This document shows, in pieces, positions 2,209 through 34,069 of a DNA stretch of 64,000 nt. The notes below the pieces were generated by a model, which made no database searches, was not told the DNA's origin, and worked only from the letters and a program-made list of their open reading frames with translations. Both the position numbers and the translations under genes were made by a program. Position 1 is the first letter of the stretch. Every line of letters begins with the position of its first letter. Source of the stretch: an uncultured delta proteobacterium (GTDB lineage Bacteria > Myxococcota > Myxococcia > Myxococcales > Anaeromyxobacteraceae); contig CAWHDZ010000008.1 of the NCBI GenBank assembly GCA_963828255.1, forward strand, positions 32,001-96,000, given 5' to 3'.

Positions 2209-2225
2209 CAAGGCAGGGCGACGCG

Positions 2226-2795: not shown

Positions 2796-2827
2796 GGCCG
2801 GCATCATATCCCGTCGTGGTTCGATGC

Positions 2828-4192: not shown

Positions 4193-4384
4193 GCGTCCCC
4201 CGGCCCGGTGGGCCGCGCGGAGGGGGCGGGCGCCCCGAACGCGGCGCTGATTTGCGTACCACGCACCGGCGAACGGAGGCAACCGCCCGGCCGCGCCGGG
4301 CCGTGATCCCGGCGGCACGGTTGACTTGGAACCGACGCGCAGGCGAGATTTTCCCCCTCATCCGGTGGTGTGGGGGGGGTCGCG

Positions 4385-5836
4385 ATGTCTGGAACCTGGA
4401 TCATGCGCCTGGCGGTGCTCGCCCTCCTGGGCGCGGCGCCCCTCCGCTCGCCGGCGGCCGGGGGCGAGACCACGGCGGTGCTGGCCGTGTCGGAGCCGCC
4501 CGGACCCTCTCCCGAGCTCATCGAGATCTCGAGGCAGGTGCGCCAGGCGCTGGCCGAACGCAGCCCGGGGGTCCTCGAGGCGCAGCAGGTTCGCGAGCGG
4601 ATGGCCGGGCCCGACGTGCCCGCGCAGCTCGCGGAGCTGGATCGATCATACGACGCGGCGCGAACCGCCTACCAGAACGGCGACTTCGCCACCTCCATCC
4701 GTTCCTTCCGCGCCGTCACCACCTCGCTCGCCAAGCTGCCGCCGGGCGACGACGTCTTCCAGGCGTGGACGCGGGCGATGCTGCGACTCGCCAAGGCCGA
4801 GTCGGACCTCGGTCGCACCGACGAGGCGCGCGCCGTCCTCGACCGGCTGGTCCGCGCCGCCCCGGCCGTCGTCGCCGACCCCGAGCTCTACCCGCCCAAG
4901 TTCGCCCGGCTCGTCGAGGAGGCGAAGGGAAGGCTGGCTGCGCTCCCCACCCGTCGGCTCGCCATCGGCTCGACCCTGCCGGGGACGCGCGCCTACGTGG
5001 ACGGGCGGCCGGTCGGCGAGGCCCCGATCAAGGTCGAGCTCGCGGCTGGCCGGTACCGGGTCTCGGGACGCTCGGGATCGACACGGTCGGTGGTGGTCGA
5101 GGTCGACCTCGGCTCGAGCGACCAGGAACTGCCCCTCGATTTCTCCCCGGCCCAGTCGCTCCGGCCGCTGCTCGGTCCCGGCCTGGCCCTGGCTGAGCCC
5201 GCCTCCACCCGCGGCGCGGTCTCGGCCGGCGCCCTCCTCGGGCTCGACGCGCTGGTCGCGGTGAACCTGGACGGCCCCGCCATCCTCTCCGGCCGGGTGT
5301 TCGACGTCTCGAAGGGGACCCTGACGCGCGAGGGGAAGGTGCGCCTTGTGAACCGTGCGCTCCCCCTCGGCGGCGCCACCGCGCTGGCCGAGTTCCTCGC
5401 CACCGGGAGCACGGCCTCCGGCCTGGTCCTCCTCCCGGGCGACCCGTCCCTGGCCGTGGACCTGTCGACGCCGGCGCTTCCGGCCTCGGCCCTGGACTCC
5501 GCGAGGACGGGCGCCCCTGCCAGCGACTCGAGGGTCCTCGGGTGGACCGCCTTCGGGACCGGCGTCGCGGCCGTCGGCCTGGGCGGTGTCGCCATCTGGC
5601 AACTGCTCTCCTCCAACAGCAGCTACTCCCAGGCCCAGTCGATGCTCGATCCCTCCGGCGCGCTCCCTCCCGGCGCCGACGCGAGCCAGTACCAGGCCCT
5701 CATCGCCAGCGGCGATTCGTCGCGACAGGTGGCCGTCATCACCGGGGTCGGCGCTGGCGTATGCCTGATCGCGACGGGAGTGCTGGGCTACCTCAGCATC
5801 AAGCAGACGGGCGAGCTCGGACCCTTCCGCTTCTAG
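4385..5836 (+). CDS. Exported TPR-like + PEGA domain protein with C-terminal hydrophobic segments
   Basis: Signal peptide MRLAVLALLGAAP; helical repeat region; PEGA-like STLPGTRAYVDGRPVGEAPIKVELAAGRYRV. Confidence 0.75.
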   Translation: MSGTWIMRLAVLALLGAAPLRSPAAGGETTAVLAVSEPPGPSPELIEISRQVRQALAERSPGVLEAQQVRERMAGPDVPAQLAELDRSYDAARTAYQNGDFATSIRSFRAVTTSLAKLPPGDDVFQAWTRAMLRLAKAESDLGRTDEARAVLDRLVRAAPAVVADPELYPPKFARLVEEAKGRLAALPTRRLAIGSTLPGTRAYVDGRPVGEAPIKVELAAGRYRVSGRSGSTRSVVVEVDLGSSDQELPLDFSPAQSLRPLLGPGLALAEPASTRGAVSAGALLGLDALVAVNLDGPAILSGRVFDVSKGTLTREGKVRLVNRALPLGGATALAEFLATGSTASGLVLLPGDPSLAVDLSTPALPASALDSARTGAPASDSRVLGWTAFGTGVAAVGLGGVAIWQLLSSNSSYSQAQSMLDPSGALPPGADASQYQALIASGDSSRQVAVITGVGAGVCLIATGVLGYLSIKQTGELGPFRF

Positions 5837-7542
5837 CGCGCGGAGAAGTTGAACGTCCGCGTGACCCGCTCGCCGGCGCGGACCTCGATCCGTTCCTGGC
5901 GCCGTCCCAGCTGCGGGTGGGTGGCGACCACGAAGACGGTTCCCGACCGGATGCGGAACTCCTTGGGCGCCTCGCCGTACGGCCGGCCGTCGAGGAGAAC
6001 GTCGCCGAAGGGCTCCACCTGCACCGAGAGTACGCCCTGCCCGGTCGAGGCCGCCGGCGTGGCGATCGCGTTCAGGGCGTCCTGGACCTCGACGGGCTCC
6101 CGGTTTCGCGCGGCCTCGCGAGGCCGGGACGCCGGGGTCGCTGGCGCCGCCCGGTCCGGGAGCGCGGAGGCCGGGGAAGGCTGGGGCTCGGCCGCCGGGG
6201 CAGGGCTCGGCGCCGACGCCGTCGGCGGAGCGGCGGGCGGCGCTGCCGGGGCCGTGGAGACCGGCCCTGCGGCGGCGGATGGAGGGGCGGAGGGGCGCAG
6301 GGCGCGAACCCCCAGACCGGCGGCCACGACGGCGAGGATCGCGGCGACGCCCGCCGCGACGGTGCGCGGCCGGAGCCCCCCGGCGTTCCCGCCAGGAGCC
6401 GGTCTGGTGGATTGCGCCTGGCCGGTCCGGGCCGGAGTCCGCCGCACCGGTGGCGGCACCCTGGGCGGCGGCGGCGCCTCGGCGGGGGGGGGGGTCTTCC
6501 CGGGGGGGCGCGGGCCGGGCGTGGTCCGGTCGAGCACCGCGGTCTGGTGCGTGTCGCGAACGTCCCCGTCGTCCGGCCCGGGAAGGAGCTCGCAGGCCAG
6601 CAGCAGTCGGCCCATCTCCTCGGCATCAGCCGGCCGCGCGCTGCGGTCCACCGACAGCGTCCGCATCACCAGCGCCTCGAGCTCCGGCGAGTAGGCGCGA
6701 CCCGGGCACCGCACGCTGGGCGGGAGCGGCTTCTCCACCAGGTGCTTTCGCACCAGGTCGAGCGGCGTCCGCCCCTCCACCGGAAGCTCGCCGGTGAGCA
6801 TCTCGTAGAGGATGACGCCGACGGCGTAGAGATCGCTGCGCGCGTCGAGTTCGGTATCCTCCCACTGCTCCGGGCTCATGTAGCCCGGCGTGCCGCACAC
6901 CAGCCCGTCCTGGGTGAGGGTCCGTTGGCCCTCCCCGGGCTCCAGGATCTTCGCGATGCCGAAGTCGAGCACCTTGACGAGGTCCCGGGCATCGCGCCGG
7001 GACTCCAGCATCACGTTCTCCGGCTTGAGATCGCGGTGCAGGATGCCGTCGGCGTGGGCTTCGGCGAGTGCCGCCAGGATCTGCTGCCCCACCCGGACGA
7101 CCCGCCGCTCGGGCAGGGGCGAGTCGGCGGCGATCACCTCGGCGAGGCTCCTCCCCGCCACGTACTCCATCACCATGAAGAGCGTCCCGTCGGCCGCCTG
7201 GCCGAAGTCGGTGACGTTGATCACGTTGGGGTGGCGAAGCCGGGACGCAGCCCGCGCCTCTCGCTGGAAGCGCTGGACGATGGCCGGATCGGCGAGCAGG
7301 GCCTTCTTCAGGATCTTGATGGCGACGGGCGACTCGAGGGTGACGTGCTGCCCCTTGTAGACCTGCCCCATGCCTCCTCCGCCGATCCGCTGCTGGACGA
7401 AGTAGACGCCCCGGAAGGTCTGGCCGATGAAGGGATCCCCGGCCTGCCCCTCGATCGGTGAACCGGGAACGGCGTTGCCGCAGAAGGCGCAGAAGAGCGC
7501 CCCGGGCGTCAGTTCACGGTTGCACCGGCTGCAGGAGAGCAT
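5833..7542 (-). CDS. Membrane Ser/Thr protein kinase (N-terminal zinc ribbon, Pro-rich linker, TM, C-terminal PEGA-like domain)
   Basis: CSRC...CAFCG; GGGGMGQVY, VAIK, HRDLKPEN, DFG, GTPGYMSPEQ; TM VAAGVAAILAVVAAGLGV; DVLLDGRPYGEAP. Confidence 0.92.
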   Translation of the reverse strand: MLSCSRCNRELTPGALFCAFCGNAVPGSPIEGQAGDPFIGQTFRGVYFVQQRIGGGGMGQVYKGQHVTLESPVAIKILKKALLADPAIVQRFQREARAASRLRHPNVINVTDFGQAADGTLFMVMEYVAGRSLAEVIAADSPLPERRVVRVGQQILAALAEAHADGILHRDLKPENVMLESRRDARDLVKVLDFGIAKILEPGEGQRTLTQDGLVCGTPGYMSPEQWEDTELDARSDLYAVGVILYEMLTGELPVEGRTPLDLVRKHLVEKPLPPSVRCPGRAYSPELEALVMRTLSVDRSARPADAEEMGRLLLACELLPGPDDGDVRDTHQTAVLDRTTPGPRPPGKTPPPAEAPPPPRVPPPVRRTPARTGQAQSTRPAPGGNAGGLRPRTVAAGVAAILAVVAAGLGVRALRPSAPPSAAAGPVSTAPAAPPAAPPTASAPSPAPAAEPQPSPASALPDRAAPATPASRPREAARNREPVEVQDALNAIATPAASTGQGVLSVQVEPFGDVLLDGRPYGEAPKEFRIRSGTVFVVATHPQLGRRQERIEVRAGERVTRTFNFSAR

Positions 7543-7572
7543 CGCAGCCGGACATGTTAGCAGGGCTCCGCG

Positions 7573-7776
7573 CTAACGCGTGCCGCTCCCCCGGAACCCG
7601 GGGTCGCGCGCCGCCATCCCCGCGATGACGGCCTCCACCACGTCGTTCGCCACCGGAACCGGAGGCGTGGGGATGCCCGGCCGCACCGCATCGCGCGGGG
7701 AGGGCCCCGCGCCGACGTCGTCTCCTGCAGGTGCCGCGAGCGCCGCGAGCCATCCCGGAACCATCTCTCGAGCCAT
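7573..7776 (-). CDS. Small hypothetical protein (67 aa)
   Basis: GGGAGG Shine-Dalgarno just upstream of ATG 7776, and TGCTACCGT extended -10-like motif at 7795-7803; no recognisable domain. Confidence 0.4.
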   Translation of the reverse strand: MAREMVPGWLAALAAPAGDDVGAGPSPRDAVRPGIPTPPVPVANDVVEAVIAGMAARDPGFRGSGTR

Positions 7777-7916
7777 GTCCAGCCTCCCGGAATGACGGTA
7801 GCAGCCCAGGTCCTGTGCGCCGCAAGGGACCGGTGTGGGCGGACCTGGCTCCCGTGACTACTGCTCGACTCGTCTGTTATCCTCCCCGACCGTTCGATGC
7901 CCGAAGCGGAACGCGC

Positions 7917-9425
7917 ATGAAACGACACGCCCTGGCAGGTCTCCTCGTCGTCCTCTGGGCGTGCACCCCGCGTCCGGACCCCGACGCGCTCGTGACCCGA
8001 ATGGTCACCGGGGACTTCACAATCCGCCACTGGCAGGACGACGGGACGATCACGGAGGTCGTGGACGACAGCGTGGCGGGGAGCACCGTCTCTGCCTTCT
8101 CCTGGGAGCCCACCGGGGGACGCTTGGCCTCGGCGCAGGTCAGCACGGCCGGCACCTTCACCATTCCCTCGGCGCCCGCCGACCCGTTCTACCTCGTGCT
8201 CGACACCCGTGCGCGGGGCTTCAACGTGGTCGTGTGGGAAGCGGACGCGGGGCAGCTCTCCGTCGACCGGACCTACGCGGGACGGTCCGACACGGCGACG
8301 GCGCGGACGAGCACTCCGGTCACGGTGAGCGTCTCGAACCTCGAGCCCTGGGCCTCGGGCGTGCTCGAGGCCACCTCGTCGAACGCGGGCTTCCTGGCCG
8401 TGCTGGCCGGATCGCTCTTCGGGGCACCCGACCTCCCGTCCGGCGCCGTGGACACCTCGGGGCTCCCCGGGCCGGTCGACTGGTACACCCGGCTCCGCGT
8501 TCCCTACCTCCCGGACGCCTCCCGCGGGGACGACGTCTGGGTTCACCAGCTCCAGGGCCAATCGGTCCCGGCCGGCCTGCCCGGAGCCGGTCTCTGGTAC
8601 CTCGCCGCCGCCCGGTACGCGCGCCTCACGGACCTGACGCTCCAGAGCGGTACCCCCGCCTCCCTGACCGCAAGCCTCGTCGATGCCACCCCTCACGCCC
8701 TTCCGCTGACGCTGCCGGTCTCGCAGTGGGAGGCGCTGAAGCCGGGCATGGGGGTCGGTCCCACGGCGATCGGGATCGTGGTGAGCGTGGCCGCGACGCC
8801 TTTCTCGACCGGGCTCCCCTCGCCCTGGATCGAGGGGGGAATCCCCGATCTCCTGTACACCTTCGTCCCGGCGGGGTCGGGGAACGTCACGGGCGCCTCG
8901 CTCACCTACGGCCGCTTCCTCGACGCGCGGTGGAACGAGGTGCTGATCACCGAGTTCCGGGCCTCGGTCCAGTACCCGGTGTCCGGCGGGAATCCCGTCA
9001 CCATGTTCAGCAAGATCTACCGCGCCGAGGCGCTCACCGGGGATCCGGGCACGATCTCCCCGGTGGTCGGACCTCCCTCGGATCCGCTGATCAACGGGAA
9101 GAATCTCTTCGGCCAGGAGTCGGGCGTGTCGACCACCCCGCTCCTGTCCTGGTCTCCGCCTCACCTCGGGACGGCGACGAGCTACGAGCTGGAGCTCTAC
9201 CGCCTGAACGGCAACTCCACCGCGACGCTCGTGCTCCACGCCTTCCTCCGCTCGGCGTCGTTCCGCGTGCCCGGGGAGATCCTCCTGCCGTCCTCGGCGT
9301 ACTTCGCGCGGATCACGGCCCACTCGGCCCCCTGGGACGTCCCGGGCTACCTCGGGACGTACGGATTCGTGCCCGGCTTTCCGTTCGCGTTCGCCTCCTG
9401 CCTCACGAGCACGTTCAGCCCGTGA
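7917..9425 (+). CDS. Lipoprotein with ~450 aa beta-rich domain ending in an FN3-like module
   Basis: MKRHALAGLLVVLWAC lipobox; TTPLLSWSPPHLGTATSYELEL; similar to two domains inside the downstream giant protein. Confidence 0.8.
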   Translation: MKRHALAGLLVVLWACTPRPDPDALVTRMVTGDFTIRHWQDDGTITEVVDDSVAGSTVSAFSWEPTGGRLASAQVSTAGTFTIPSAPADPFYLVLDTRARGFNVVVWEADAGQLSVDRTYAGRSDTATARTSTPVTVSVSNLEPWASGVLEATSSNAGFLAVLAGSLFGAPDLPSGAVDTSGLPGPVDWYTRLRVPYLPDASRGDDVWVHQLQGQSVPAGLPGAGLWYLAAARYARLTDLTLQSGTPASLTASLVDATPHALPLTLPVSQWEALKPGMGVGPTAIGIVVSVAATPFSTGLPSPWIEGGIPDLLYTFVPAGSGNVTGASLTYGRFLDARWNEVLITEFRASVQYPVSGGNPVTMFSKIYRAEALTGDPGTISPVVGPPSDPLINGKNLFGQESGVSTTPLLSWSPPHLGTATSYELELYRLNGNSTATLVLHAFLRSASFRVPGEILLPSSAYFARITAHSAPWDVPGYLGTYGFVPGFPFAFASCLTSTFSP

Positions 9426-9565
9426 ACCCCCTCCAAGGCCCCTTCGAGCCCCTTTTTTGGTGAATTCTCGATTCCCTGGGGTTTTCCACAGGGAAACGCG
9501 GTGGGGCGTCCTGGCAGGATCCCCCGTCTGGTAGCGCCAATCTCCGGGCGCTGGTGGGGGGCCAC

Positions 9566-12500
9566 ATGGTTCGTGCAGGGCAAGGTGCGTTGCTGTGGGT
9601 GCTGGTGTGCGCGGCGTTCACGTTTGGTTGCAAGAGCGGAGGCGACGTGCCGCCTCCCCCGGCGGACCCGAACAAGGCGACCGGGGTCGTCAGCCCCGAG
9701 AGCACCTCTCCCGTCGTGGTCTCCCTGCCGAGCGGCGCGACGGTGACCGTCCCCCCGGGCGCCGTCAGCCAGCCCACCACCATCACCATCGAGAAGACGA
9801 GCACGCAGCCTCCGGGCGCGTCGTCCCCGCTCTACAACGTGGGGCCCGCCGGTACCCAGTTCCTCCAGCCGGTCACCATCTCGATTCCCATCCCCGCCGG
9901 CGTCTCGGTCTCGTCGGGCGCCACCATCTACCTCTCCTCGGGGACCCAGACGGGCACCTACCAGGCCCTCCCCACCACCGTGACCACCACGGGCAGCGGC
10001 TCGACCGCGACCGCGCAGGTCGGGCAGGTGGGCTCGGTCTTCGTGGGCCAGCCCTGCGCCGAGGGGGCGGCGTGCGCGACGGAGACGACCTGTCGCGCCG
10101 GGTCCCAGACCTGCGTCACCGGGAAGCCGGCGTGCTCGGAGACGGGGCTCCTCGCGACGGACGGGACGTCCTGCGGCGGCGGCCAGATCTGCGGCCTCGG
10201 CACCTGCATCGCCCCGAGTGCCACCGGCACCGTCACCGCGAGCGGCGGCGGGACCGTGACCCTTCCCGGAGGAGTCGTCGTCCAGTTTCCGCCCGGGGCG
10301 ATCCCGGCCGACACGGTCGTGACCGTCAACGTGGTCGGCGGCGCCGCTCCGCCGGGCGCGCTCTCCCCGGTCCTGGAGTTCCTCCCCTCGATGACCTTCG
10401 CCCAGCCCGTCACGGTGAGCTTCCCGATCGCGGGGACGCCTCCATCGGGCACGACCATCTACTGGAGCCAGCCCGGCACGACGGGAGCCTGGACCCCGCA
10501 CCTCGCGAGCCTCTCCACGCCGGGCGTCGCCTCCACCCAGGTCACCCACTTCAGCCTGGGCTACGTCGGGCTTCCGTGTACTCCCGGTGACGCCTGCTCG
10601 GTCGCCAGCGCCTGCCACGTCGGCGCCATCGCCTGCACGTCGGGCGCGCCGGTCTGCTCCGACACCGGCACGGGGAGGCCCGACGGCACCACCTGCGGCA
10701 GCGGCAACACCTGCCAGGGCGGCTCCTGCGTCACCCCTTCGCTGGTCGGGCAGTGGAAGGGGACCGTTCCCGGCTCCGGCGTCGCCGTCGTGACGATCCG
10801 CGCCGACGGCACCTGGAGCAGGGCCACGGCCGGCGGCCCGGTCGCCTCGGGCGCCTGGACCGTCGCCGGCAACCTGATCGCGCTCACCGACGACGCCTGC
10901 GGCGCGGGGGTCACGGGCACCTACGAGTACACGGCCGCGGCCGGGTCGCTCGTCCTCGAGCTGGTGAGCGACTCGTGTTCCTCGCGGGCCGCGGTCGCAG
11001 ACGTGGTCCTCGTGAAGTCGACCGTCACGCTCTGCGTGCCCGGCGCTTCCTGCACCCCCGCCGCTCCGATCGCCTGCCGCGCCTACGCCACGACCTGCGA
11101 CGCGACCTTCACCCAGACCACCTGCTCCCCCGACGCCTTTCTCCAGGACGGTACCTCCTGCGGGAGCGGCCTCGTCTGCACCGCGGGGGCCTGCGGAGCC
11201 CCGCCGGTCGTGATCGACCTCAACGGGACCTGGACGGGCACGACCTTCACGGCCACGGCCACGCCTCCGGGCGGCACGGCGGGCGCACCCGTGACCTTCG
11301 CGGCCGCTCGCGAGGCGATCCAGGTCGGAAGCGCGGTCAGCTTCACGACGGTCTCGAGCCTCGGTTCGGAGAGCGACTGCACCGGCACGCTCTCGGGCAC
11401 GACCGTCTCGGCCAGCTGCACCATCGTGAACCTCGACGGGACGTGCTCCGGCAGCTACTCGGTGACCGCGCCGGTCACTCCGGGCTCCCTGGCGACGTGG
11501 GAGACCGGGGACGTCACGTACACCTGGAGTGGATTTTCCTGTGCGCAGGCCGGCACCGTCGTCCACGTGCCGACCGGAGCGCTGGCGCCCCAGACGGCTC
11601 CTCCCCCAGACATCTCCGGAACCTACTCGGTCGCCATCGACTACACGAGGACGGGGCCGTCGCCCCGCTCCCCTCAGACGGGGACCAGCACCGGGACCCG
11701 GGTGCGCACGCAGGCCGGGAACTTCGTCCGCTCGATGCTCACGACCCCGAACACGACCTACTACTGCTACGGGCCGGTGATCGGCACCACGGTCTACGAC
11801 GCCTGCAACGGCTTCGGCGCCGACGGAGTGACGACCTTCAGCGGGCGCCTCCAGAGCACGATCACGCCGGGAAGTCCCCTGACGATCAGCGGGGGCGGGA
11901 GCTACACGATCCACGGTGACTTGGCCGGCTACACGAACCTCGTGGCGACGGCGGTCGCCACCCGCACCGGCGCCTCCACCTGCACCCCGAGCCAGACGTG
12001 CTTCCCGTACGGATCGGCCAACCCTTGCTCCACGTATGCGACGACCTGCTCCGCCTCCGGCGTCCAGGGCTGCGCGGCCGCCGCCAGCCAGGCCGAGGGG
12101 ACCTCGTGCGGCTCGTCCCTGGTCTGCAGCGCCACCGGGACCTGCATCGCGGCCTGCGTGGCCGGCAGCGGCTGCACGCCCGCCGGAACAGCCGACCCCT
12201 GCAGGACCTACGCGACCACCTGCAACGGGGCCGGCACCGTGACGACCTGCTCGCCCGCCACCAACCGGCCCGACGGGACGACCTGCGGCAGCGGCCTCGT
12301 CTGCAGCATCGGCAGCTGCGTCGCCGCATGCGTGGCCGGCAACGCCTGCACGCCCGCGGGGACGCCAATCGCCTGCCGGGCCTACGCCACGACCTGCGAC
12401 GCGACCGGCACGGTCACGTCCTGCTCGCCCGCGGCAAACCTCCCCGACGGCACGACCTGCGGTACCGCGAGCATCTGCTCCGCGGGGACGTGCGCCGCGG

Positions 12501-15500
12501 ACAGCGCCAGCGCCAGCATCGGCGTCTCCGGCGGGTCGGTCACCACCCTGAGCGGGGCGAGGCTCGCCGTCCCAGCGAGTTCCCTCGACGCCACCCGGAG
12601 CTTCCAGATCGCGCGGTCGGCGTCGGCGCCCCCCGCGGGCGTGGCGGCTTACTCGCCCGTGTACGACCTAGCCCCTGACGGCGTCATCTTCGCACGGCTT
12701 CCCGTCGTCACAATCCCCATCCCCGCGGGCGTCGCCCAGGCCTCGATCTACTCGTCCCGCCTCGACGGCACCGGCTTCGACGCGCTGGAGGGCACGGTCG
12801 ACACCGTGGCGCACACCGTCAGCGCCCAGGTCGGCCACCTCGGCCAGGCCTTCGCCGGGGCTCCGGCGGCGACGCGCGACGTGGTCGGCTACGGGATCAC
12901 CACGTACATCACGCCGACGTCCCGGGCCAACGTCCTCGTCGACTTCTCGTCGAGCCCACCGGAGATCCTGGTGCCGACCGGCGGAGGCGCGTACCGGAGC
13001 ATCCCGGCCGTGGTGGGCACCGGCGCCGCAGCCGGGACCGTCCGCTTCCCGAACGTTCCGCAGGGCGAGCACCTCCTCCGCCGGGGGACCAGCTACTCGT
13101 TCCGCTCGGGTGACGTGGCGAACTTGGGATCCTCGGTCGCGGGGAAGCCGATTTCCCTTCGGACCGCTCTCACCCAGAGCTCGATCCTCAATCTCGCGGT
13201 GTCCGGCATGGCCTCGTGGCAGGTGGGCGACTGGCTGGAGTTCTTCTCCCCCCAGGTGAACGACTGGGACTTCGAGACCGACATCCTGGCGGATCCGCCC
13301 CTCCAGCCGGGCGACGTCGGCGCCCACCTTCCCATCGACGTCCGGTTCCTGAACGCCGCGCCGACGAACTACCTCATCGAGGGCTCGAAGGGGGACCAGG
13401 CGATCGTCGCGCAACTCTCGTCCGCCACGTCCGGGAATGGCCTGCCCTACATCTCGATGGCGCGCGTAGGCGTCGTGCCCTCCTTCGACCTCCCGGCGAG
13501 CGGAACGACGCCCGCCTCGGTGGTCCTCGTCCCGATCAACCGGGGCACCGTCTCCTTCGACTGGCGCGGCTCCCAGTGGCGCGGGGCCGTCGAGCTGGAC
13601 GGGAACCCCGCCCACGTCGGCGCGAGCCCCACGAGCCCCTGGGCTGGCGGCGACCTGGGCATCTACGCGCTCCCCGGGCTGGCGAGCGACGGCTACTACT
13701 CCGCGAGCGCCGACCTGCTCTGGATGCACGATTCCACAGGCTCGGACGCAGCCACCGGGGCGATGAACGTCGCCACGGCCGCCGACGCACTCCCGGGGAC
13801 GTGGGCGGCAAGCGCCATGGGCGGATATTCCATGCCGGTCCCGCTGCTGTTGCCAGGTACGACCACGTCTTTCCTGGGCCTGAACGACTCGCTTCGCGAT
13901 TGGATGACCGTCGACGCCTCCCAGTCGCGTCCGTTCGAGCCCAGCCTCACCGCCCCGGTGGCCGCCTTCGTCGGGTCGAGCCACTTCTTCGCCGGTGGGG
14001 AGAGCATGGGGACGACTCCCACCGTCACCTGGACCGCACCGCGGGTAGGAGTCCCGACCAGCTACGGGCTCACCATCCACGAGATCTTCCGCAGCGGCAT
14101 CCGCACGACCCGTCGGGCGACCGCGAGCTTTTCCACGCAGGCGACGACCCTTGCAATCCCTCCCGGCATCCTCCAGCCCGAGAAGAACTACGCGTTCGTC
14201 CTCTCGAGCTACGCGTCCGATGCGGACCATTCCGCGAGCGCCGCCATCGTCTCCGGCATCTTCCGCACCAGCGCCCAGTGCGTCGCGGTCGTCGCGTGCA
14301 CGCCGACGGGCATCCCCGACCCGTGCCGCACCTACACCACCACCTGCGACCCCTCGCTGACCGTCACGACCTGCTCGCCGACCGGCGTCGCCCCGCCGCT
14401 CACCACCTGCGGGACCGCCCAGGTCTGCAACGGATCCGGACAGTGCATCGCCGACGTCGCGGTGAGCGTGTCGCCCGCATCGGCCAGCATGGCGCCCGGC
14501 CAGCAGATCGCCTTCACGGCCACGGTCGACGGAGTTCCCAGCACCGCGGTCACCTGGTCGGTACAGGAGGGGGCGGCCGGCGGGACAGTCGTGAGCGGCG
14601 TCTACACCGCACCGGCCACGACCGGCGTGTACCACGTCGTCGCGACCAGCACTCTGAACCCGCTCCGCAGCGCGACGGCGACGGTGACCGTCGCGGCCCC
14701 GGCCCAGCCCTGGCTCTCCGTCTCCCCGCCGGCCGTGTCGGCGACGGCATCCTCCGGCACCAGCGTCGCGACCACGCTCACGATCGCGAACGCGGGAACG
14801 GGTACGCTCGCCCTGCCATTCGCCTGGGCGAATTACTCGACCGGATCGAACTGGATCACGGCCCGGGTCATCGGCGCCGCGGCGCCCTACTCGCTGGTGG
14901 TCACGACCAGGGCCACGAGCCTTCCACCCGGGACCTACACCGCGAACGTCGAGATCGAGGAGGTGGGCGCGGGCAACTCCACCCAGATCGTCCCGCTCAC
15001 CTTCACCGTGACGGCCCCTGCCATCGGCGTCGTGGTCTCCCCCACCGCGGCTTCGCTCGGCTACGGGGACCAGGCCACCTTCGTCGCATCGGTGAGCGGC
15101 TCCGCGAACGGGGCCGTGACCTGGTCGGTCACCGAGGGTGCCGCGGGGGGGACGGTGTCGGCCTCCGGGGCCTACACGGCGCCCTCCGTCGCAGGCACCT
15201 TCCACGTCGTCGCGACCAGCGCCGCCGACCCGACGAGGAGCGCCACGGCCACGGTGACGGTGGCGGCGCCGGCGCCGGTGGTGATGCCCGCGAGGCAGTG
15301 GATCGCCTTCGGTGGCACTCCAGGCGGTGCAGCACCACCCGCCCAGGTCGTCTCCGTCGCCAACGGCGGAACGGGGTCGCTCGCCCGTCCTTCACTTACA
15401 GTCACCTTCCCGACCGCGGCGGGCTGGCTGACCGCCGACGTGACCGGGAGCGCCCCGCCCTACGCGCTCACCCTGACGCCGATCGGCCCGCTCCCGGCGG

Positions 15501-16987
15501 CCGGGTTCTACCACGCCTACGTCGACCTCACCTCGGCGAGCGCACCCGGTGCCCCCGTCCGGGTGGACGTCATGCTCCAGGTCACGGCGGGCGCCCGGAA
15601 CGTGACGGTCACCCGCCGGCGCCATTTCCTTCCGGAGGTCGGCGCACCCTCGGTCGTGAACGTGACCGGGCTCGATGTCGGGGCCGTCCTGCGCAACCCC
15701 GAGGGCGTCACCCCCGGCATCACGATGCGCTTGCCGGCCGTCGACAACGGTGACGGTACGTACACCCTCCACGGCGTGCCGGCGGGCCGCGTCCTGGTGA
15801 ACCCGGTCGGCTTCGGAAACTTCGACGTCGCCGGGAACGCCATCGACCTCAGCACCTACGAGGGGTACCGGTCCGACGTCGTCGTGCCGGCGCTTTCGAC
15901 CCCGGTGACCGTCGCGCTGACCGGACTCGATCCCTGGGCCGAGGTCATCGACTCGCTCCAGTTCTTCACGAACGACGCGTACGACTGGAACGTCTTCCCG
16001 GGCAACGGGGTGTCCTCCGGTGCGTCGTCGACTCCGGGAGTGCTCGTCAACTGGCGGAACATCTACGGGGGGCTGCTGCGCGCCACGGACGTGCTCCACG
16101 TGGTCCAGTTCCGCCGGACTCCGGCGAGAGATGCCGTCACCGGCGCCTCCTACATCTACGATCAGGGCGTGGCGGGTGGCGTCGTCACCGGCCAGGCGCT
16201 CCAGGACGGCGTCCCGGCCAGCTTCGCGGTCCAGCTCGCGCCCCCCTCCTCCAGGCCGACCACCTCGCTCGACTGGCGGCTGACCCAGTTCGAGTCGGTG
16301 CTGTCCTCCTCGGGCGTCCCGACGTGGGGAGACCACTCCTACACGCTCCACGCGAGCGCCGCGCCGATCACGCCGATCCGCTACGGCGGGAGCACCCTGG
16401 ATCTCATCGAACTGCTCGCGATCATCGGGAACCCGGACATCCGGATCTCGTCCATGAGCTACGGTGACCTGGCGTCCCCGGGCTACGTGCCGCGCGAGAG
16501 CTTCAGCTACTCGGAGCAGGTTCCGCGAACGGCCTTCGGTGCGTCGATCGCGCTCGACGTCGCCGTGGATGCCGCCGTCTTTCGGGCCTTCTCTCCGGGC
16601 ACGACCGCGACTCCGCTCGTCGGCGAGGTCTCCTCGCCGATGATCGCGGGGCGGGACGCGCGGGTCCCCTACCAGGGGACCATGAATCCCCCCGTGGCTC
16701 CCCTCATCACCTGGGCACCCCCGGCCATCGGAACGGCCGACTACTACTTCGTCCAGCTCCTCGAGCTGAGCCCGACGGCCACCGGGGGCACCCAGCAATC
16801 GGCCACCTACCGGATCCAGACGACCCAGACCCAGTTCCAGCCGCCCGACTGGTTCTTCCAGCCCGGCAAGACCTACGTGGTGAAGATCCAGGCCAACCAC
16901 ATGCCGGGCTTCTCGGAGAGCGCTCCCCGGACGTTCCGGACTCCCCACGGCTGGGCCGACTTCCTCTCGGCGGAGTTCACGCCGTAG
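9566..16987 (+). CDS. Giant modular surface lipoprotein (~2470 aa: 3 ZU5-like, 7 eight-Cys repeats, lipocalin-like, 2x Ig+BACON-like, 2 large FN3-terminated domains)
   Basis: MVRAGQGALLWVLVCAAFTFGC lipobox; uninterrupted ORF with internal repeats readable in the translation. Confidence 0.85.
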   Translation: MVRAGQGALLWVLVCAAFTFGCKSGGDVPPPPADPNKATGVVSPESTSPVVVSLPSGATVTVPPGAVSQPTTITIEKTSTQPPGASSPLYNVGPAGTQFLQPVTISIPIPAGVSVSSGATIYLSSGTQTGTYQALPTTVTTTGSGSTATAQVGQVGSVFVGQPCAEGAACATETTCRAGSQTCVTGKPACSETGLLATDGTSCGGGQICGLGTCIAPSATGTVTASGGGTVTLPGGVVVQFPPGAIPADTVVTVNVVGGAAPPGALSPVLEFLPSMTFAQPVTVSFPIAGTPPSGTTIYWSQPGTTGAWTPHLASLSTPGVASTQVTHFSLGYVGLPCTPGDACSVASACHVGAIACTSGAPVCSDTGTGRPDGTTCGSGNTCQGGSCVTPSLVGQWKGTVPGSGVAVVTIRADGTWSRATAGGPVASGAWTVAGNLIALTDDACGAGVTGTYEYTAAAGSLVLELVSDSCSSRAAVADVVLVKSTVTLCVPGASCTPAAPIACRAYATTCDATFTQTTCSPDAFLQDGTSCGSGLVCTAGACGAPPVVIDLNGTWTGTTFTATATPPGGTAGAPVTFAAAREAIQVGSAVSFTTVSSLGSESDCTGTLSGTTVSASCTIVNLDGTCSGSYSVTAPVTPGSLATWETGDVTYTWSGFSCAQAGTVVHVPTGALAPQTAPPPDISGTYSVAIDYTRTGPSPRSPQTGTSTGTRVRTQAGNFVRSMLTTPNTTYYCYGPVIGTTVYDACNGFGADGVTTFSGRLQSTITPGSPLTISGGGSYTIHGDLAGYTNLVATAVATRTGASTCTPSQTCFPYGSANPCSTYATTCSASGVQGCAAAASQAEGTSCGSSLVCSATGTCIAACVAGSGCTPAGTADPCRTYATTCNGAGTVTTCSPATNRPDGTTCGSGLVCSIGSCVAACVAGNACTPAGTPIACRAYATTCDATGTVTSCSPAANLPDGTTCGTASICSAGTCAADSASASIGVSGGSVTTLSGARLAVPASSLDATRSFQIARSASAPPAGVAAYSPVYDLAPDGVIFARLPVVTIPIPAGVAQASIYSSRLDGTGFDALEGTVDTVAHTVSAQVGHLGQAFAGAPAATRDVVGYGITTYITPTSRANVLVDFSSSPPEILVPTGGGAYRSIPAVVGTGAAAGTVRFPNVPQGEHLLRRGTSYSFRSGDVANLGSSVAGKPISLRTALTQSSILNLAVSGMASWQVGDWLEFFSPQVNDWDFETDILADPPLQPGDVGAHLPIDVRFLNAAPTNYLIEGSKGDQAIVAQLSSATSGNGLPYISMARVGVVPSFDLPASGTTPASVVLVPINRGTVSFDWRGSQWRGAVELDGNPAHVGASPTSPWAGGDLGIYALPGLASDGYYSASADLLWMHDSTGSDAATGAMNVATAADALPGTWAASAMGGYSMPVPLLLPGTTTSFLGLNDSLRDWMTVDASQSRPFEPSLTAPVAAFVGSSHFFAGGESMGTTPTVTWTAPRVGVPTSYGLTIHEIFRSGIRTTRRATASFSTQATTLAIPPGILQPEKNYAFVLSSYASDADHSASAAIVSGIFRTSAQCVAVVACTPTGIPDPCRTYTTTCDPSLTVTTCSPTGVAPPLTTCGTAQVCNGSGQCIADVAVSVSPASASMAPGQQIAFTATVDGVPSTAVTWSVQEGAAGGTVVSGVYTAPATTGVYHVVATSTLNPLRSATATVTVAAPAQPWLSVSPPAVSATASSGTSVATTLTIANAGTGTLALPFAWANYSTGSNWITARVIGAAAPYSLVVTTRATSLPPGTYTANVEIEEVGAGNSTQIVPLTFTVTAPAIGVVVSPTAASLGYGDQATFVASVSGSANGAVTWSVTEGAAGGTVSASGAYTAPSVAGTFHVVATSAADPTRSATATVTVAAPAPVVMPARQWIAFGGTPGGAAPPAQVVSVANGGTGSLARPSLTVTFPTAAGWLTADVTGSAPPYALTLTPIGPLPAAGFYHAYVDLTSASAPGAPVRVDVMLQVTAGARNVTVTRRRHFLPEVGAPSVVNVTGLDVGAVLRNPEGVTPGITMRLPAVDNGDGTYTLHGVPAGRVLVNPVGFGNFDVAGNAIDLSTYEGYRSDVVVPALSTPVTVALTGLDPWAEVIDSLQFFTNDAYDWNVFPGNGVSSGASSTPGVLVNWRNIYGGLLRATDVLHVVQFRRTPARDAVTGASYIYDQGVAGGVVTGQALQDGVPASFAVQLAPPSSRPTTSLDWRLTQFESVLSSSGVPTWGDHSYTLHASAAPITPIRYGGSTLDLIELLAIIGNPDIRISSMSYGDLASPGYVPRESFSYSEQVPRTAFGASIALDVAVDAAVFRAFSPGTTATPLVGEVSSPMIAGRDARVPYQGTMNPPVAPLITWAPPAIGTADYYFVQLLELSPTATGGTQQSATYRIQTTQTQFQPPDWFFQPGKTYVVKIQANHMPGFSESAPRTFRTPHGWADFLSAEFTP

Positions 16988-28334: not shown

Positions 28335-30488
<2,154 letters not shown>

Positions 30489-30520
30489 CGGGCCGGCGAA
30501 CGCCACGGTAGACTCGGGGC

Positions 30521-31285
30521 GTGCCGGGCGCGCCCTCGTCGTTCGAGCTCTCCAAGTGGTACCTGGACGTGGCGACCCCCGACGGGCGCTGCGCCGTCGT
30601 CTACGCGGCGCGCCTGAGGCTCCTGCGGGTCTCCCTCCAGGTGCAGGGGTTGCTCCTGCTCGACGGCGGCCGGGTGCGGGCCCGGTGGAGCGTGCTCCCC
30701 ACCCGCCCCCCGCGGGTCGAGGGAGGCCGCCTCCGGTTCTCCAGCCTTCCACTGGGCGTGAACGTCCGGCTCGACGCCATCGACCCCCCGTTCCGGGCCC
30801 GCCTGCGAGAGGGAGCCCGGGGCGCCGTCGACTGGGACTGCCGCATGCCCCGCGCCGGTGCGGAGATCCGGGTGGGGAAGGAGACCCTCTCCGGCCTGGG
30901 CTACGCCGAGCAGGTCCGGATCACCGTCCCGCCCTCGGAGCTGCCCATCCGCGAGCTGCGCTGGGGCCGGCTCCTGTCGCCCTCGGGGGGATTGGTCTGG
31001 ATCGATTGGCTCGGGGACGCACCGCTGCGCCTCGCGCTGCGCGACGGGCGCCCGGCATCCCTCGACCGGGTGACCGACCGGGAGGTGACGGTGGACGGCG
31101 CCCGGCACCGGCTCGACCCGATCGCGACCCTCCGCGACGCGCCCCTCTCCCGCACCATCCCCGCCACCGTCCGGCGTTTCCTGCCCCGGATCGGCCTCGG
31201 CCTCTCCGAGACCAAATGGCTCGCGCGCGGCGCCGTGGGCGGCGCGCCCGGCCTCTCCATCCACGAGGTGGTCCGGTGGCCGTGA
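30521..31285 (+). CDS. Hypothetical beta-rich protein coupled to the downstream Lgt-like fusion
   Basis: 254 aa; LSKWYLDV...GLGYAEQV...LRWGR...VWIDW; stop overlaps the next start (GTGA). Confidence 0.7.
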   Translation: MPGAPSSFELSKWYLDVATPDGRCAVVYAARLRLLRVSLQVQGLLLLDGGRVRARWSVLPTRPPRVEGGRLRFSSLPLGVNVRLDAIDPPFRARLREGARGAVDWDCRMPRAGAEIRVGKETLSGLGYAEQVRITVPPSELPIRELRWGRLLSPSGGLVWIDWLGDAPLRLALRDGRPASLDRVTDREVTVDGARHRLDPIATLRDAPLSRTIPATVRRFLPRIGLGLSETKWLARGAVGGAPGLSIHEVVRWP

Positions 31286-33177
31286 CACCCGGACCGGTCC
31301 TCTACGGCCTCCTCTTCGCCGTGGCGCTGCCGGCGCTGCTCGTCCTCTGGGCCCGCGGCGCATCGCCCCAGGTCCACCTTCCGGCTGTCCACCTGCCGGC
31401 CGCCGGCTGGATCGCCACCGCCTCCGGGCTCCTGCTCGTGGGCGCGGCCATGCTCGACCTCTGGCGCCGCGGCGGCGGCCTGCCCATGAACGCCTACCCG
31501 CCGCCCCGCCTGGTCACCGGCGGCGCCTACGCGGTGGTGGGACACCCGATCTACGTCGGCTTCACGCTCGCCGTGGCCGGCATCGCCGTGGCCACCGGGT
31601 CGGCGGCCGGGCTCTGGCTCGTCGCGCCCGGCGTCGCGCTCGGTTCCGCGGCGCTGGTCCTCGGCCACGAGCGGCCCGACCTGCTTCGCCGCTTCGGCCG
31701 CCTCTCCCGCCCCTGGATCTCGGCCCCCCCGGCGGGCATTGCATCGCCGACCTGGCCGCAGCGCACCGGCGCGCTGCTCCTCGCCATGGGGCCGTGGCTG
31801 CTCCTCTACGAGGCCTGCGCCGCCATCGGCCCGGCGCCGGACGCGGTGTCGTCGCTCCTCCCGTTCGAGCGGGGATGGCCGGTCTTCCCCTGGGCCGAGC
31901 CCGTCTACGCGAGCACCTACCCGGTGGTGGTCGCCGCGTTCCTGTGGGCGCCCTCGCGCGACGCGCTCCGCACCCTCACGCTGCGCGTCCTCGTCTCGAT
32001 GGCGGTGGTCTTCCCGCTCTTCCTGCTCGTGCCGCTGGTCGCGCCGCCGCGCCCCTTCGAGCCGGCCGATCTCCTGGGGCGGCTCGTCGCCCTGGAGCGG
32101 GAGTGGGACACCCCGGCCTGCGCCTTTCCCTCCTTCCACGCCGTGCTGGCCTTCCTGGCGGCCGACGCGCTCTCGGCGCGCTCCCGCCTCTTTCGCCCCT
32201 GGGCCTGGGCGGTGGCCCTGTCGTGCCTGCTCGTCGGGGCCCATTCCCTCCTCGACGTCGCGGCGGGGCTCCTCGTCGTGGCCGCGATCCGGAACGGCCG
32301 GGCCATCTGGGAGGTGCTCCGTCGTGGCGCGGAGCGCGTGGCCAACTCCTGGCGCGCCTGGCGCGTCGGCCCGGTGCGCCTCATCAACCACGGGCTCTGG
32401 GTCGGGCTCGGCGCGGGCCTCGGGGTCGTCGTCCTCGGCGCGGTGCTCGGCCCGGGCAGCGCCACGCTCGCCGCCACCACCTGGTTCCTCGGGGTGGTCG
32501 GCGCGGGGGCCTGGGCCCAGGCGGTCGAGGGGCGGGGGCTGTCGCGCCCCTTCGGATTCTACGGGGGGCTCCTCGGCGTGGTGGCGGGCGTGCTCCTCGC
32601 CCCGGCCTTCGGCTTCGACCGCTGGACGGCCCTGGCCGCGGGGGCGATGGCCGCACCGGTGGTCCAGGGGCTCGGCCGGATGCGCTGCCTGGTGCAGGGC
32701 TGCTGCCACGGCGCCCCGGCGCCGGAGGGGGTGGGCATCCGCCACCGGACGCCCCTGTCACGGGTGGTGAAAGCCGGCCTGGGGGGCGTGCCGGTGCACC
32801 CGACCGCGCTCTACTCGATCCTCTGGAACTGCCTCACCGGGGCGATCCTGCTCCGGCTCGCGCTGCTCGGGGCGCCCGCCAACCTGGTCGCCGGCCTCTA
32901 CCTCTTCCTCGGGGGCGCCGGGCGCTTCGTCGAGGAGTCGTTCCGGGGCGAGCCTCAGACCCCGGTCGTCCTCGGCCTGCGGCTCTACCAGTGGATGGCG
33001 GTCGGGTCGGCCGTGGCCGGCGCGGCGCTGACGGCGCTGGGCCCCGCGCCCGGAGTCGCCCTCCACCCGCCGGAGCCGGGGGGCCTCCTCGCGGCGGTCG
33101 TGGCCCTGGTCCTCACCGCCGTGGCCATGGGCGTGGACCTGCCGGGCTCGTCGCGGCGGCTGTCGCGGCTCGCGTAG
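31282..33177 (+). CDS. Membrane fusion protein: PEMT/ICMT-like methyltransferase + PAP2-like + Lgt-like domains
   Basis: GGGLPMNAYPPPRLVTGGAYAVVGHPIYVG; AFPSFH...HSLLDV; FYGG, GRMRCLVQGCCHG, HPTALYS, GRFVEESFRGEP. Confidence 0.8.
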   Translation: MTPGPVLYGLLFAVALPALLVLWARGASPQVHLPAVHLPAAGWIATASGLLLVGAAMLDLWRRGGGLPMNAYPPPRLVTGGAYAVVGHPIYVGFTLAVAGIAVATGSAAGLWLVAPGVALGSAALVLGHERPDLLRRFGRLSRPWISAPPAGIASPTWPQRTGALLLAMGPWLLLYEACAAIGPAPDAVSSLLPFERGWPVFPWAEPVYASTYPVVVAAFLWAPSRDALRTLTLRVLVSMAVVFPLFLLVPLVAPPRPFEPADLLGRLVALEREWDTPACAFPSFHAVLAFLAADALSARSRLFRPWAWAVALSCLLVGAHSLLDVAAGLLVVAAIRNGRAIWEVLRRGAERVANSWRAWRVGPVRLINHGLWVGLGAGLGVVVLGAVLGPGSATLAATTWFLGVVGAGAWAQAVEGRGLSRPFGFYGGLLGVVAGVLLAPAFGFDRWTALAAGAMAAPVVQGLGRMRCLVQGCCHGAPAPEGVGIRHRTPLSRVVKAGLGGVPVHPTALYSILWNCLTGAILLRLALLGAPANLVAGLYLFLGGAGRFVEESFRGEPQTPVVLGLRLYQWMAVGSAVAGAALTALGPAPGVALHPPEPGGLLAAVVALVLTAVAMGVDLPGSSRRLSRLA

Positions 33178-33195: not shown

Positions 33196-33606
33196 CTACC
33201 CTTCCGCCGCCTTCCGGGCCCGCTGGAGCAGGTCCGAGACCTCGACGCGAAGGCGTCTCGCGAACTCGCTCCGGTCGAAGGGGGAGTCGCGGAGCACGAA
33301 GAGATCGATCTTGGTCGCGGTGGGCCGGTAGATGACGTTCCAGGAACTCTTCTCGGCGGCCGCCCGCCGGGGCGCCACCTCGTCCACGTCGAAGTCCGCT
33401 CCCAGCCCCGCCGCGAGCGCCCCGACCTGACCCTCCTCGAGGTCCACCACCAGGTCGATGTCGTTCGTGGCGCGCGGCTCACCCTGGAACGAGCTGGCCA
33501 GCGAGCCCCCCAGGAAATGGCCGATCCCATGACGTTCCAGCACGCCTGTCACTCCCAGGCGTTCCCTGTACCGTGCCTGGACCTCGGGGGCGGTGTCGCG
33601 GAGCAT
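33196..33606 (-). pseudogene. Degraded or fused nucleotidyltransferase-like gene
   Basis: GGSLASSFQGEPRATNDIDL (G-S...DxD) and KIDLF motifs in only 136 aa. Confidence 0.55.
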
Positions 33607-33658
33607 CACCCGAGCATGGGCCGCGCCTGCGCGGGCGTCAGCCGGGCGGGTGCCCGCC

Positions 33659-34069
33659 TCACTTCCCCGCGGCGCGGGCGGCCCGGAACTCGAGCGTCGT
33701 CCCGGCGGGGAGCCGCTCGATGCGCTCCACCCGGAGCCTGGGCTCCTTCCAGTCCATGGAGAACCGGACCTCGACCTTGTCCCCCGCTGCCAGCTCCTTC
33801 GGCGCGCGTTCGGCCTGCACCTCGAAGGGCATGACCATCGCATCCATGCCCACGACCTTGCCGGTGGCGTCGACGAAGTCGTCGATGGCCTCGTGGCGGA
33901 CGAGCACCTGGATGCCGGAGGTGACGGGGGCGGGGGCCTGCACCACCTCCCCGCGCACGACGTAGACGCGCGCTCCGGCCGGCGCCGGGGGAGGCGGGGC
34001 GCTGCAGGCGGCGAGCAGGACGAGAAGGGTCGCGGGCCGGAGGGTGCGATGGACCGGCCGACCCTTCAC
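33659..34069 (-). CDS. CusF-like periplasmic Cu/Ag-binding lipoprotein
   Basis: LAAC lipobox; VRHEAI...GMDAMVMPF; LAAGDKVEVRF. Confidence 0.75.
   Translation of the reverse strand: MKGRPVHRTLRPATLLVLLAACSAPPPPAPAGARVYVVRGEVVQAPAPVTSGIQVLVRHEAIDDFVDATGKVVGMDAMVMPFEVQAERAPKELAAGDKVEVRFSMDWKEPRLRVERIERLPAGTTLEFRAARAAGK

Follow-up and report, generated by a model that had tools for sequence, protein, structure and literature searches.

A methyltransferase-PAP2-Lgt fusion and its AttH-fold partner: a candidate lipid-tailoring cassette with a predicted cytoplasm-facing Lgt domain

Introduction

What would an Lgt domain do when it is joined, in one membrane protein, to a methyltransferase and a PAP2 phosphotransferase? 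The question is raised by a two-gene cassette on contig CAWHDZ010000008.1 of an uncultured delta proteobacterium (Myxococcota, Anaeromyxobacteraceae; assembly GCA_963828255.1). The DNA analysed is a stretch of 64,000 nucleotides (contig positions 32,001 to 96,000), here called the window. The first gene of the cassette encodes a 254-residue protein (the partner), and the second encodes a 631-residue polytopic protein (the fusion). A prediction made from the sequence alone (the original prediction) had read the pair as an assembly line for an unusual lipid or for a non-canonical lipoprotein anchor. So far as is known, Lgt acts solely at the first step of lipoprotein maturation, facing the periplasm. 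A literature survey, with subscription journals outside its scope, found neither the fusion nor an Lgt facing the cytoplasm described in any paper; in PMC12419801, Lgt and PAP2 come up only in other connections. The Lgt copy of the fusion has a predicted cytoplasmic orientation, so the likely role of the pair is to make a membrane lipid not yet described, and not to anchor lipoproteins.

A Three-Domain Membrane Protein and Its Predicted Orientation

The two open reading frames (ORFs; Table 1) overlap by GTGA, confirming the predicted pair and its translational coupling. Pfam places PEMT on fusion residues 74-125 (E 9.3e-7; 29.7 bits against a cut-off of 25), PAP2_3 on residues 208-336 (E 1.3e-9; 38.6 bits against 27), and LGT on residues 424-584 (E 2.8e-20, above cut-off). 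The AlphaFold model, built from a 117-row alignment, has a predicted local distance difference test score (pLDDT) of 93.9 and a predicted template modelling score of 0.92. Its residues 11-142 match ICMT (5vg9; Z 11.4, root-mean-square deviation (rmsd) 2.9, 120 aligned), and residues ~142-339 match SMSr (8ijr; Z 11.9), Aur1 (9ivc; Z 11.5), and LpxE (Z 10.7). Residues 344-588 match E. coli Lgt (5azc; Z 15.9, rmsd 3.6, 229 aligned), and 5azb is also matched by the Lgt domain (E 2.8e-5). Sequence searches of the PDB with the partner and fusion profiles gave 0 matches each. Pfam and predicted fold thus bear out the methyltransferase, PAP2, and Lgt domains of the original prediction. Each domain is a known fold, and the cassette would be of a multi-enzyme, lipid-modifying kind. 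At least 652 of 662 pattern matches in GTDB genomes were confirmed as encoding a relative, which rules out an assembly artefact.

E. coli Lgt has its catalytic cavity within the membrane's periplasmic half and has basic cytoplasmic loops, and it obeys the positive-inside rule (PMC4728403). The fusion shows a different pattern in its Lgt region. Its 18 helices were delimited by hand from the model and from family hydropathy. Over 81 fusion sequences, the summed mean of Lys and Arg is 35.3 in the odd loops versus 8.2 in the even loops. The basic side holds the methyltransferase loop, both termini, and all four Lgt active-site loops, and the PAP2 motifs lie on the other side. The methyltransferase loop has to reach cytoplasmic S-adenosylmethionine (SAM). 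Because helix 339-354 lacks hydrophobic character (mean 0.17), the parity is unaffected by it.

Stand-alone Lgts from the same genomes served for comparison, one mis-extracted row (L107) having been dropped. Three loops lie on the cytoplasmic side in ordinary Lgt; in 83/83 fusions they have 1-4 Lys and Arg, compared with at least seven in 31/31 stand-alone Lgts. The net charge of the active-site face is +8.5 in fusions and +0.8 in stand-alone Lgts. By computation, then, the fusion departs from the periplasmic site and basic cytoplasmic loops of Lgt. The inverted loop charge and the agreeing helix parity together predict, from sequence and model, a cytoplasmic Lgt site and a periplasmic PAP2 site. 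This orientation, rather than the Tyr-for-His replacement discussed below, is the informative feature of the fusion.

A Conserved but Rebuilt Lgt Site

The equivalents of Lgt residues R143, G154, R239, E243, and R246 (R466, G477, R548, E552, and R555) are kept in 83/83 fusions. Just as constant are four fusion-specific changes, G145 to R, W153 to H, E202 to S, and V242 to E (83/83 each), and Y26 is His in 82/83. Y235 is replaced by S, T, N, or G; this position is Tyr in 23 of 32 stand-alone rows and so varies there too. Residues H370, R422-P423, R468, H476, S512, and E551 are specific to the family, and E416, R422, P423, and R494 are invariant in 81/81 fusions. Residues essential in Lgt include Y26, R143, G145, G154, Y235, R239, and R246 (PMC13251419). 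Of these, the fusion keeps R143, G154, R239, and R246 but lacks Y26, G145, and Y235. At the level of sequence, the Lgt site of the fusion is conserved but rebuilt. The domain also falls short of the curated equivalog cut-offs, with 28 against 118.9 bits for TIGR00544 and 52.2 against 334 bits for NF000778. Since these cut-offs are missed, three essential residues are lost, and the computed orientation is wrong for Lgt, the domain may at best act in an Lgt-like way and falls outside the Lgt equivalog. Database labels of Lgt or Ste14 on fusion proteins are probably wrong.

The seven-helix fold and the five conserved residues are what the fusion has in common with Lgt (E. coli 5azb/5azc; PF01790; TIGR00544). 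Unlike Lgt, the domain is predicted to be inverted, stands behind a methyltransferase, carries an extra helix and tail, and is accessory and patchy in distribution. In the tail, D619, P621, R629, and L630 are invariant in the family.

The original prediction had pointed to a Tyr in place of the His of the FHGG motif. The replacement is real, but it gives no sign of altered function; it is the usual state in these lineages, and its use as a marker of changed function was rejected. FYGG and GCC also occur in the housekeeping Lgt of the genome, and His occupies the position in only 2 of 32 stand-alone rows. Natural Lgt variants with Y, W, or F at H103 and with C at N146 are described in PMC13251419.

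The fusion was also rejected as a housekeeping Lgt, since the hosts tested have separate, much stronger LGT matches. A separate canonical lgt, which the original prediction had asked to be confirmed, is present in every host tested: an LGT match of E 1.9e-43 or better occurs in 30/30 genomes, representing 30 of 80 loci picked for taxonomic spread. The genome of the window has four LGT matches besides the fusion. It contains three housekeeping lgt copies (L001, L002, and L003, on contigs C10, C6, and C8 of G000) that are nearly identical, two of them at the protein level fully so, and that share a long N-terminal extension; they may stem from the 6.6% contamination or from duplication. The same genome encodes a divergent stand-alone Lgt paralog (L004; G000:C18:21236-21934) with an HDH motif instead of GCC/GE and with normal loop charges.

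The Partner Has an AttH/CrtC-Type Double Barrel

The partner model (pLDDT 95.2) matches six AttH/CrtC-type double-barrel chains over its whole length at Z 16.1-21.2, the next row lying at 7.8. These chains are Fsa2, CghA, a pericyclase, AttH NE1406, 25-phosphosteroid lyase, and kievitone hydratase. Foldseek agrees (E ~3e-9), and the original guess of a CrtC-like protein therefore holds for the fold. Pfam gave the partner no family, and no real match, the CrtC family included, was found across 118 members. A cytoplasmic location is likely because no signal peptide is apparent in the sequence.

Residues K12, D16, W105, Y128, E130, R150, E230, and K232 are invariant in the family, and Cys107 is kept in 117/118. 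The partner profile matches a CrtC-like gene in a carotenoid cluster (L139; E 1.6e-5). This gene, rather than the characterised enzyme, sets the register in which H-x-W and Y-x-D of CrtC correspond to V103-x-W105 and Y128-x-E130 of the partner. CrtC needs all four of H239, W241, Y266, and D268 (PMC4717167). The Trp, the Tyr, and the acid (as Glu) are kept in 118/118 partners, but the His is absent; the acid position is Glu or Asp in all 11 aligned rows.

Characterised AttH enzymes act on lipids or isoprenoids (10.1101/2025.10.20.683597; PMC4717167). One of them, Hgs, hydrates archaeal tetraether lipids, and its gene overlaps a lipid desaturase gene (10.1101/2025.10.20.683597). Yeast Svf1, which binds ceramide between two lipocalin barrels, is a non-catalytic precedent (PMC10038888). 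The double barrel of the partner is thus common to the AttH/CrtC hydro-lyases (CrtC, kievitone hydratase, Hgs, and 25-phosphosteroid lyase) and the Diels-Alderases Fsa2 and CghA. The partner shares the register of the Trp, Tyr, and acid positions with CrtC, and with Hgs the overlap with a lipid-enzyme gene. It differs from these enzymes in being ~70-120 residues shorter, in lacking the CrtC His, and in having extra invariant Lys, Arg, and Glu residues. A word-indexed search found no longer form of the partner, and a full HMMER scan found one (P0270). The genome also has a gene of the Pfam CrtC family (PF07143) elsewhere (L178; G000:C27:183-740).

Methyltransferase and PAP2 Domains

The methyltransferase elements GxPMN, HPxY, E130, and R137 are invariant in 81/81 sequences, and the methyltransferase domains of all cluster types described below align with 24 invariant columns. 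The domain shares its fold and the HPxY and ExxLxxRFG motifs with ICMT, PEMT, and MddA (PF04191, PF04140; 5vg9, 4a2n). The fusion differs from these enzymes in retaining the four-helix core only, in missing the aromatic C-terminal segment, and in placing the domain always N-terminal to a lipid transferase.

The PAP2 motifs are PSxH286 and H321-x3-D325, with H286, H321, and D325 each present in 80/81 sequences and R257 in 79/81. The PAP2 domain has the six-helix fold, PSxH, HxxxD, and (by prediction) outer-face site of Aur1 and sphingomyelin synthase (SMS) (PF14378; 9ivc, 8ijr) and of LpxE/PgpB. Unlike these, it is an internal domain and is eroded in some members: its motifs are lost in 4 of 14 further loci examined, with helix spacing retained. 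Overall, PAP2, methyltransferase, and core Lgt residues are largely invariant across the sequences aligned, as the original prediction would require.

Distribution and Genomic Linkage

The fusion gave 1460 matches among 8000 scored candidates, of which the best 120 were listed; many of the lower ones may be single-domain. The partner matched 368 of 6040 candidates; in a separate scan it had 1397 representatives at 50% identity. By their record names, the best 80 loci belong to Acidobacteriota, Myxococcota, Bacteroidota, Ignavibacteria, Chlorobiaceae, Verrucomicrobia, Longimicrobiales, and Desulfobulbales. One host, Minicystis rosea DSM 24000 (L033), is cultured. The pair is conserved, with the partner gene immediately upstream of the fusion gene, on one strand with it, at 77 of the best 80 loci, equal to 77 of the 78 that could be assessed. 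Two of the remaining loci have too little upstream DNA, and at L007 a divergent partner lies 1.4 kb away on the opposite strand.

No third gene recurs; the largest unrelated cluster occurs in 13/81 loci, from near-kin Acidobacteria. Pfam searches of 113 of 141 flanking ORFs, picked heuristically, gave only scattered families, and many had no match. Regulator and transporter genes likewise show no recurrence among the 80 main loci. No match was found on plasmids or, with one query, on viral contigs. The partner occurs in 7/61 relatives, in 18/301 genomes of the window's phylum, and in 7/201 of a second phylum, counts that take in divergent and weak matches. This patchy spread, the lack of a third gene, and the separate Lgt of the hosts indicate that the cassette is accessory and self-contained.

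Several loci show local variation. A UbiA-family prenyltransferase gene lies directly upstream of the partner in five related Acidobacteria (L030, L040, L060, L084, and L085; assigned by Pfam in three). At L121/L123 (G070:C66), a tandem duplicate of the partner and a broken 5' piece of the fusion gene precede an intact pair. The fusion homolog at L174 (4091-5908, minus strand) has an internal deletion of the last Lgt helices, with profile positions 561-620 missing.

Module Swapping in Sister Clusters

The partner is also found beside other fusions. At L122, L136, L171, and L183, it adjoins a methyltransferase::PlsC fusion; at the methyltransferase::PlsC loci L172 and L173, no partner was detected. 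PlsC is a lipid acyltransferase that faces the cytoplasm. It fills the same slot in these clusters as the inverted Lgt. A LysA-like decarboxylase dependent on pyridoxal phosphate (PLP) accompanies methyltransferase::PlsC at L136, L171, and L172. The L183 cluster comes after a free Aur1-like PAP2 gene.

At L138 and L170, a methyltransferase::Lgt fusion is followed by the partner, an ATP-binding cassette (ABC) ATPase, and an ABC permease::PAP2_3 fusion, and is preceded by a D-cysteine-desulfhydrase-like PLP enzyme (fold II). The Lgt domains of these loci likewise have low loop charge (2-3 Lys and Arg). They group with the triple fusions with a Shimodaira-Hasegawa-like approximate likelihood ratio test support of 98 in a quick tree that still held three mis-extracted stand-alone Lgt rows and in which both fused clades sit on long branches. 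These clusters span 1313-8178 at L138, which includes a fatty-acid desaturase gene, and 5351-11779 at L170, which ends in what we take to be a hydroxylase-like gene from its fatty-acid-hydroxylase motif. At L176/L177, a divergent partner comes after the triple fusion, together with an ABC exporter. In P0270, a single record, all four modules form one chain of 854 residues with an eroded PAP2. The Atlas lists PEMT::LGT and PEMT::PAP2 clusters at scores <0.9, which are leads only.

This swapping identifies the constant core as partner, methyltransferase, and inward-facing lipid transferase, with PAP2 optional and present in three physical forms.

Two further observations concern these neighbourhoods. 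The PlsC-type clusters (L136 3569-8281, L171 5117-10381, L172 4648-7675, L122, and L183) bring together a LysA-like decarboxylase, AttH, methyltransferase::PlsC, an alpha/beta hydrolase, and sometimes a radical SAM enzyme. They are a candidate aminolipid pathway by themselves. A radical SAM family with a C-terminal CPD motif, which reached no NCBIfam equivalog, lies beside AttH partners at L007 (6558-7751, minus strand), L171 (8912-10381, minus strand), and L170 (2004-3290, plus strand). The combination of radical SAM and AttH neighbours recalls the Ted-Hgs pair.

Proposed Function and Alternative Explanations

Our preferred reading, held with about even confidence, is that the cassette serves to tailor a small membrane lipid at the cytoplasmic membrane's inner face, the Lgt domain, predicted to be inverted, being the lipid-attaching step. 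All chemical steps are drawn from family knowledge. The soluble AttH-fold partner, with its conserved Tyr128 and Glu130 as an acid pair, would add water to a hydrophobic acceptor or remove it, either to uncover a hydroxyl or to hand the acceptor on to the membrane protein. The Lgt domain would then transfer diacylglyceryl from an inner-leaflet phospholipid to the acceptor; as in Lgt, the C-O bond would break and the phospho-headgroup would be released. In the sisters, PlsC would attach an acyl group instead. The ICMT/PEMT-type domain would methylate the head with cytoplasmic SAM. Finally, the Aur1-like PAP2, on the outer face and dispensable in some lineages, would swap or remove a phospho-headgroup. 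The PLP enzymes, fatty-acid desaturase, and probable hydroxylase of the sister clusters support lipid tailoring, as do the predicted orientation, the module swapping, the lipid or isoprenoid substrates of characterised AttH enzymes, and the separate LGT match in 30/30 hosts tested. The assembly-line idea of the original prediction thus stands as the best reading of the cassette; the inversion and the sister clusters had not been part of that prediction.

Several findings weigh against lipid tailoring. The sister clusters are few, with seven loci that include the partner, several of them near-kin and all but one from the window's phylum. The predicted orientation rests on charge counts and helix parity. 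With the E202 and Y235 equivalents lost, the donor may differ from phosphatidylglycerol. In 111/118 partners, V, I, or L replaces the His essential to CrtC, and the partner may therefore bind rather than catalyse. The triple-fusion methyltransferase is without the C-terminal aromatic segment and the Arg preceding HPxY, whereas the PlsC-type sisters retain both. We take these two elements to bind SAM in ICMT-type enzymes, and the SAM pocket of the triple fusion is possibly incomplete. At L126, a homolog has lost the methyltransferase loop and kept PAP2.

Part of the same evidence can be read as protein lipidation. In a bacterial counterpart of CAAX processing, an inward-facing Lgt would attach diacylglyceryl to a cysteine in some cytoplasmic protein, which might be the partner, and the ICMT-like domain would then add a methyl group to this lipidated residue. 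Lgt forms, and ICMT acts on, lipid-thioether cysteines; the two sites are predicted on the same face, and the near-constant Cys107 of the partner (117/118) offers a target. However, the partner of the L176/L177 triple fusion has Glu in the Cys107 column, the pair has no accompanying gene for a substrate or a protease, PlsC takes the place of Lgt in sister clusters, and the Arg that presumably binds the carboxylate in ICMT is Val in 80/81 sequences. We consider this explanation unlikely. Rather unlikely, too, is the detoxification of foreign lipophilic compounds. Here the partner's task would be to hydrate a prenylated toxin and that of the membrane protein to methylate it and tag it with lipid; at loci with an ABC exporter, the exporter would clear it. 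The fold shared with kievitone hydratase, a detoxifying enzyme, the patchy spread (7/61, 18/301, and 7/201), and the ABC exporters downstream at L138, L170, and L176 would fit, but the 80 main loci have no recurrent regulator or transporter, no plasmid or viral copy was found (the viral search being one query), and the sisters are accompanied by biosynthetic PLP enzymes and a desaturase.

The PAP2 domain invites a third reading, sphingolipid headgroup tailoring, in which the partner would serve as ceramide carrier and methylation would follow the addition of a phospho-headgroup by the Aur1/SMS-like domain. Its best fold matches are SMSr and Aur1 (Z 11.9 and 11.5), yet LpxE (Z 10.7) lies within ~1 of both. 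Svf1, which holds ceramide between two lipocalin barrels (PMC10038888), gives a precedent for the partner. A gene that closes the L170 cluster, fatty-acid-hydroxylase-like by its motif, would also suit this route. However, 4 of 14 further loci, and P0270 as well, have lost the PAP2 motifs, the PAP2 and methyltransferase sites are predicted on opposite faces, and the role of Lgt is left unexplained, making the proposal improbable. Last, the fusion could act as a further Lgt, facing the periplasm, and give exported lipoproteins a non-canonical anchor, as the original prediction had also envisaged. The Lgt fold match and the five residue equivalents kept in 83/83 are compatible with it, but loop charge and parity favour inversion, the NCBIfam lgt scores are 28 and 52 bits against cut-offs of 118.9 and 334, an ordinary lgt is present in 30/30 hosts tested, and no lipoprotein gene is linked at the loci examined. 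This weakened alternative we hold to be very improbable.

For lipid tailoring by an inverted Lgt, a broader evolutionary proposal is possible, in which our confidence falls a little short of even. One ancient fusion would have flipped Lgt and given rise to a class of cytoplasmic diacylglyceryl transferases. With the methyltransferase and AttH protein, this class would make an undescribed methylated ether- or thioether-linked lipid, or lipidate cytoplasmic proteins in a CAAX-like manner, and the sister family would do the same with an acyltransferase. A flipped Lgt, if true, would be a natural case of a membrane enzyme that switched compartment and substrate through fusion, and its chemistry would be applied to something besides exported proteins. 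It would be a new enzyme class if inversion and product are demonstrated. The host groups, including Acidobacteriota, Myxococcota, and Bacteroidota, are abundant in soils and sediments and have many unassigned lipids. As a self-contained two-gene cassette with a cultured host, the system is directly testable by expression and lipidomics.

Start Region and Flanking Features

The original prediction gave the partner its own TAGACT promoter. In support, a TAnnnT hexamer stands 6 nt 5' of the partner GTG, an arrangement shared by 4 of the 8 distinct relatives inspected, but a strict sigma-70 scan of the window (GC ~0.72) returned no match at TAGACT. The spacing before GTG fits a leaderless message and suggests, from sequence, that TAGACT is the -10 element of a leaderless transcript.

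Table 1. Coordinates of the cassette, its domains, and flanking features in the window
Feature	Position	Strand	Basis	Remark
Very large ORF	9464..16987	+		
Prolyl oligopeptidase with lipobox	28335..30488	+		
TAGACT, probable -10 hexamer	30509..30514	+	sequence	6 nt ahead of start codon
Partner gene	30521..31285	+	ORF list and translation, model	254-residue double barrel
Fusion gene	31282..33177	+	sequence, model, hydropathy	631 residues; 18 predicted membrane helices; both ends predicted cytoplasmic
ICMT/PEMT-type methyltransferase domain	31282..31698	+	Pfam, fold	residues 1-139; site predicted cytoplasmic
Aur1/SMS-like PAP2_3 domain	31753..32295	+	Pfam, fold	residues 158-338; site predicted periplasmic; eroded in some homologs
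Lgt-fold domain	32311..33045	+	Pfam, fold, loop charge	residues 344-588; predicted inverted
Extra 18th helix and conserved Arg-rich tail	33076..33177	+	alignment, model	past the 7-helix Lgt core
Presumed gene remnant	33196..33843	-		

The original count of at least seven lipobox proteins in the window did not hold: a crude scan gave four convincing N-terminal lipoboxes and false positives. The count has no bearing on the cassette. The remnant downstream of the fusion gene had no match in a Pfam scan; from its motifs, we take it to be a degraded short antitoxin-like gene that runs into a truncated nucleotidyltransferase-like gene. The prolyl oligopeptidase gene lies directly 5' of the cassette and is not a conserved neighbour. 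Farther upstream, the very large ORF (~2500 residues from stop to stop) probably encodes a surface protein.

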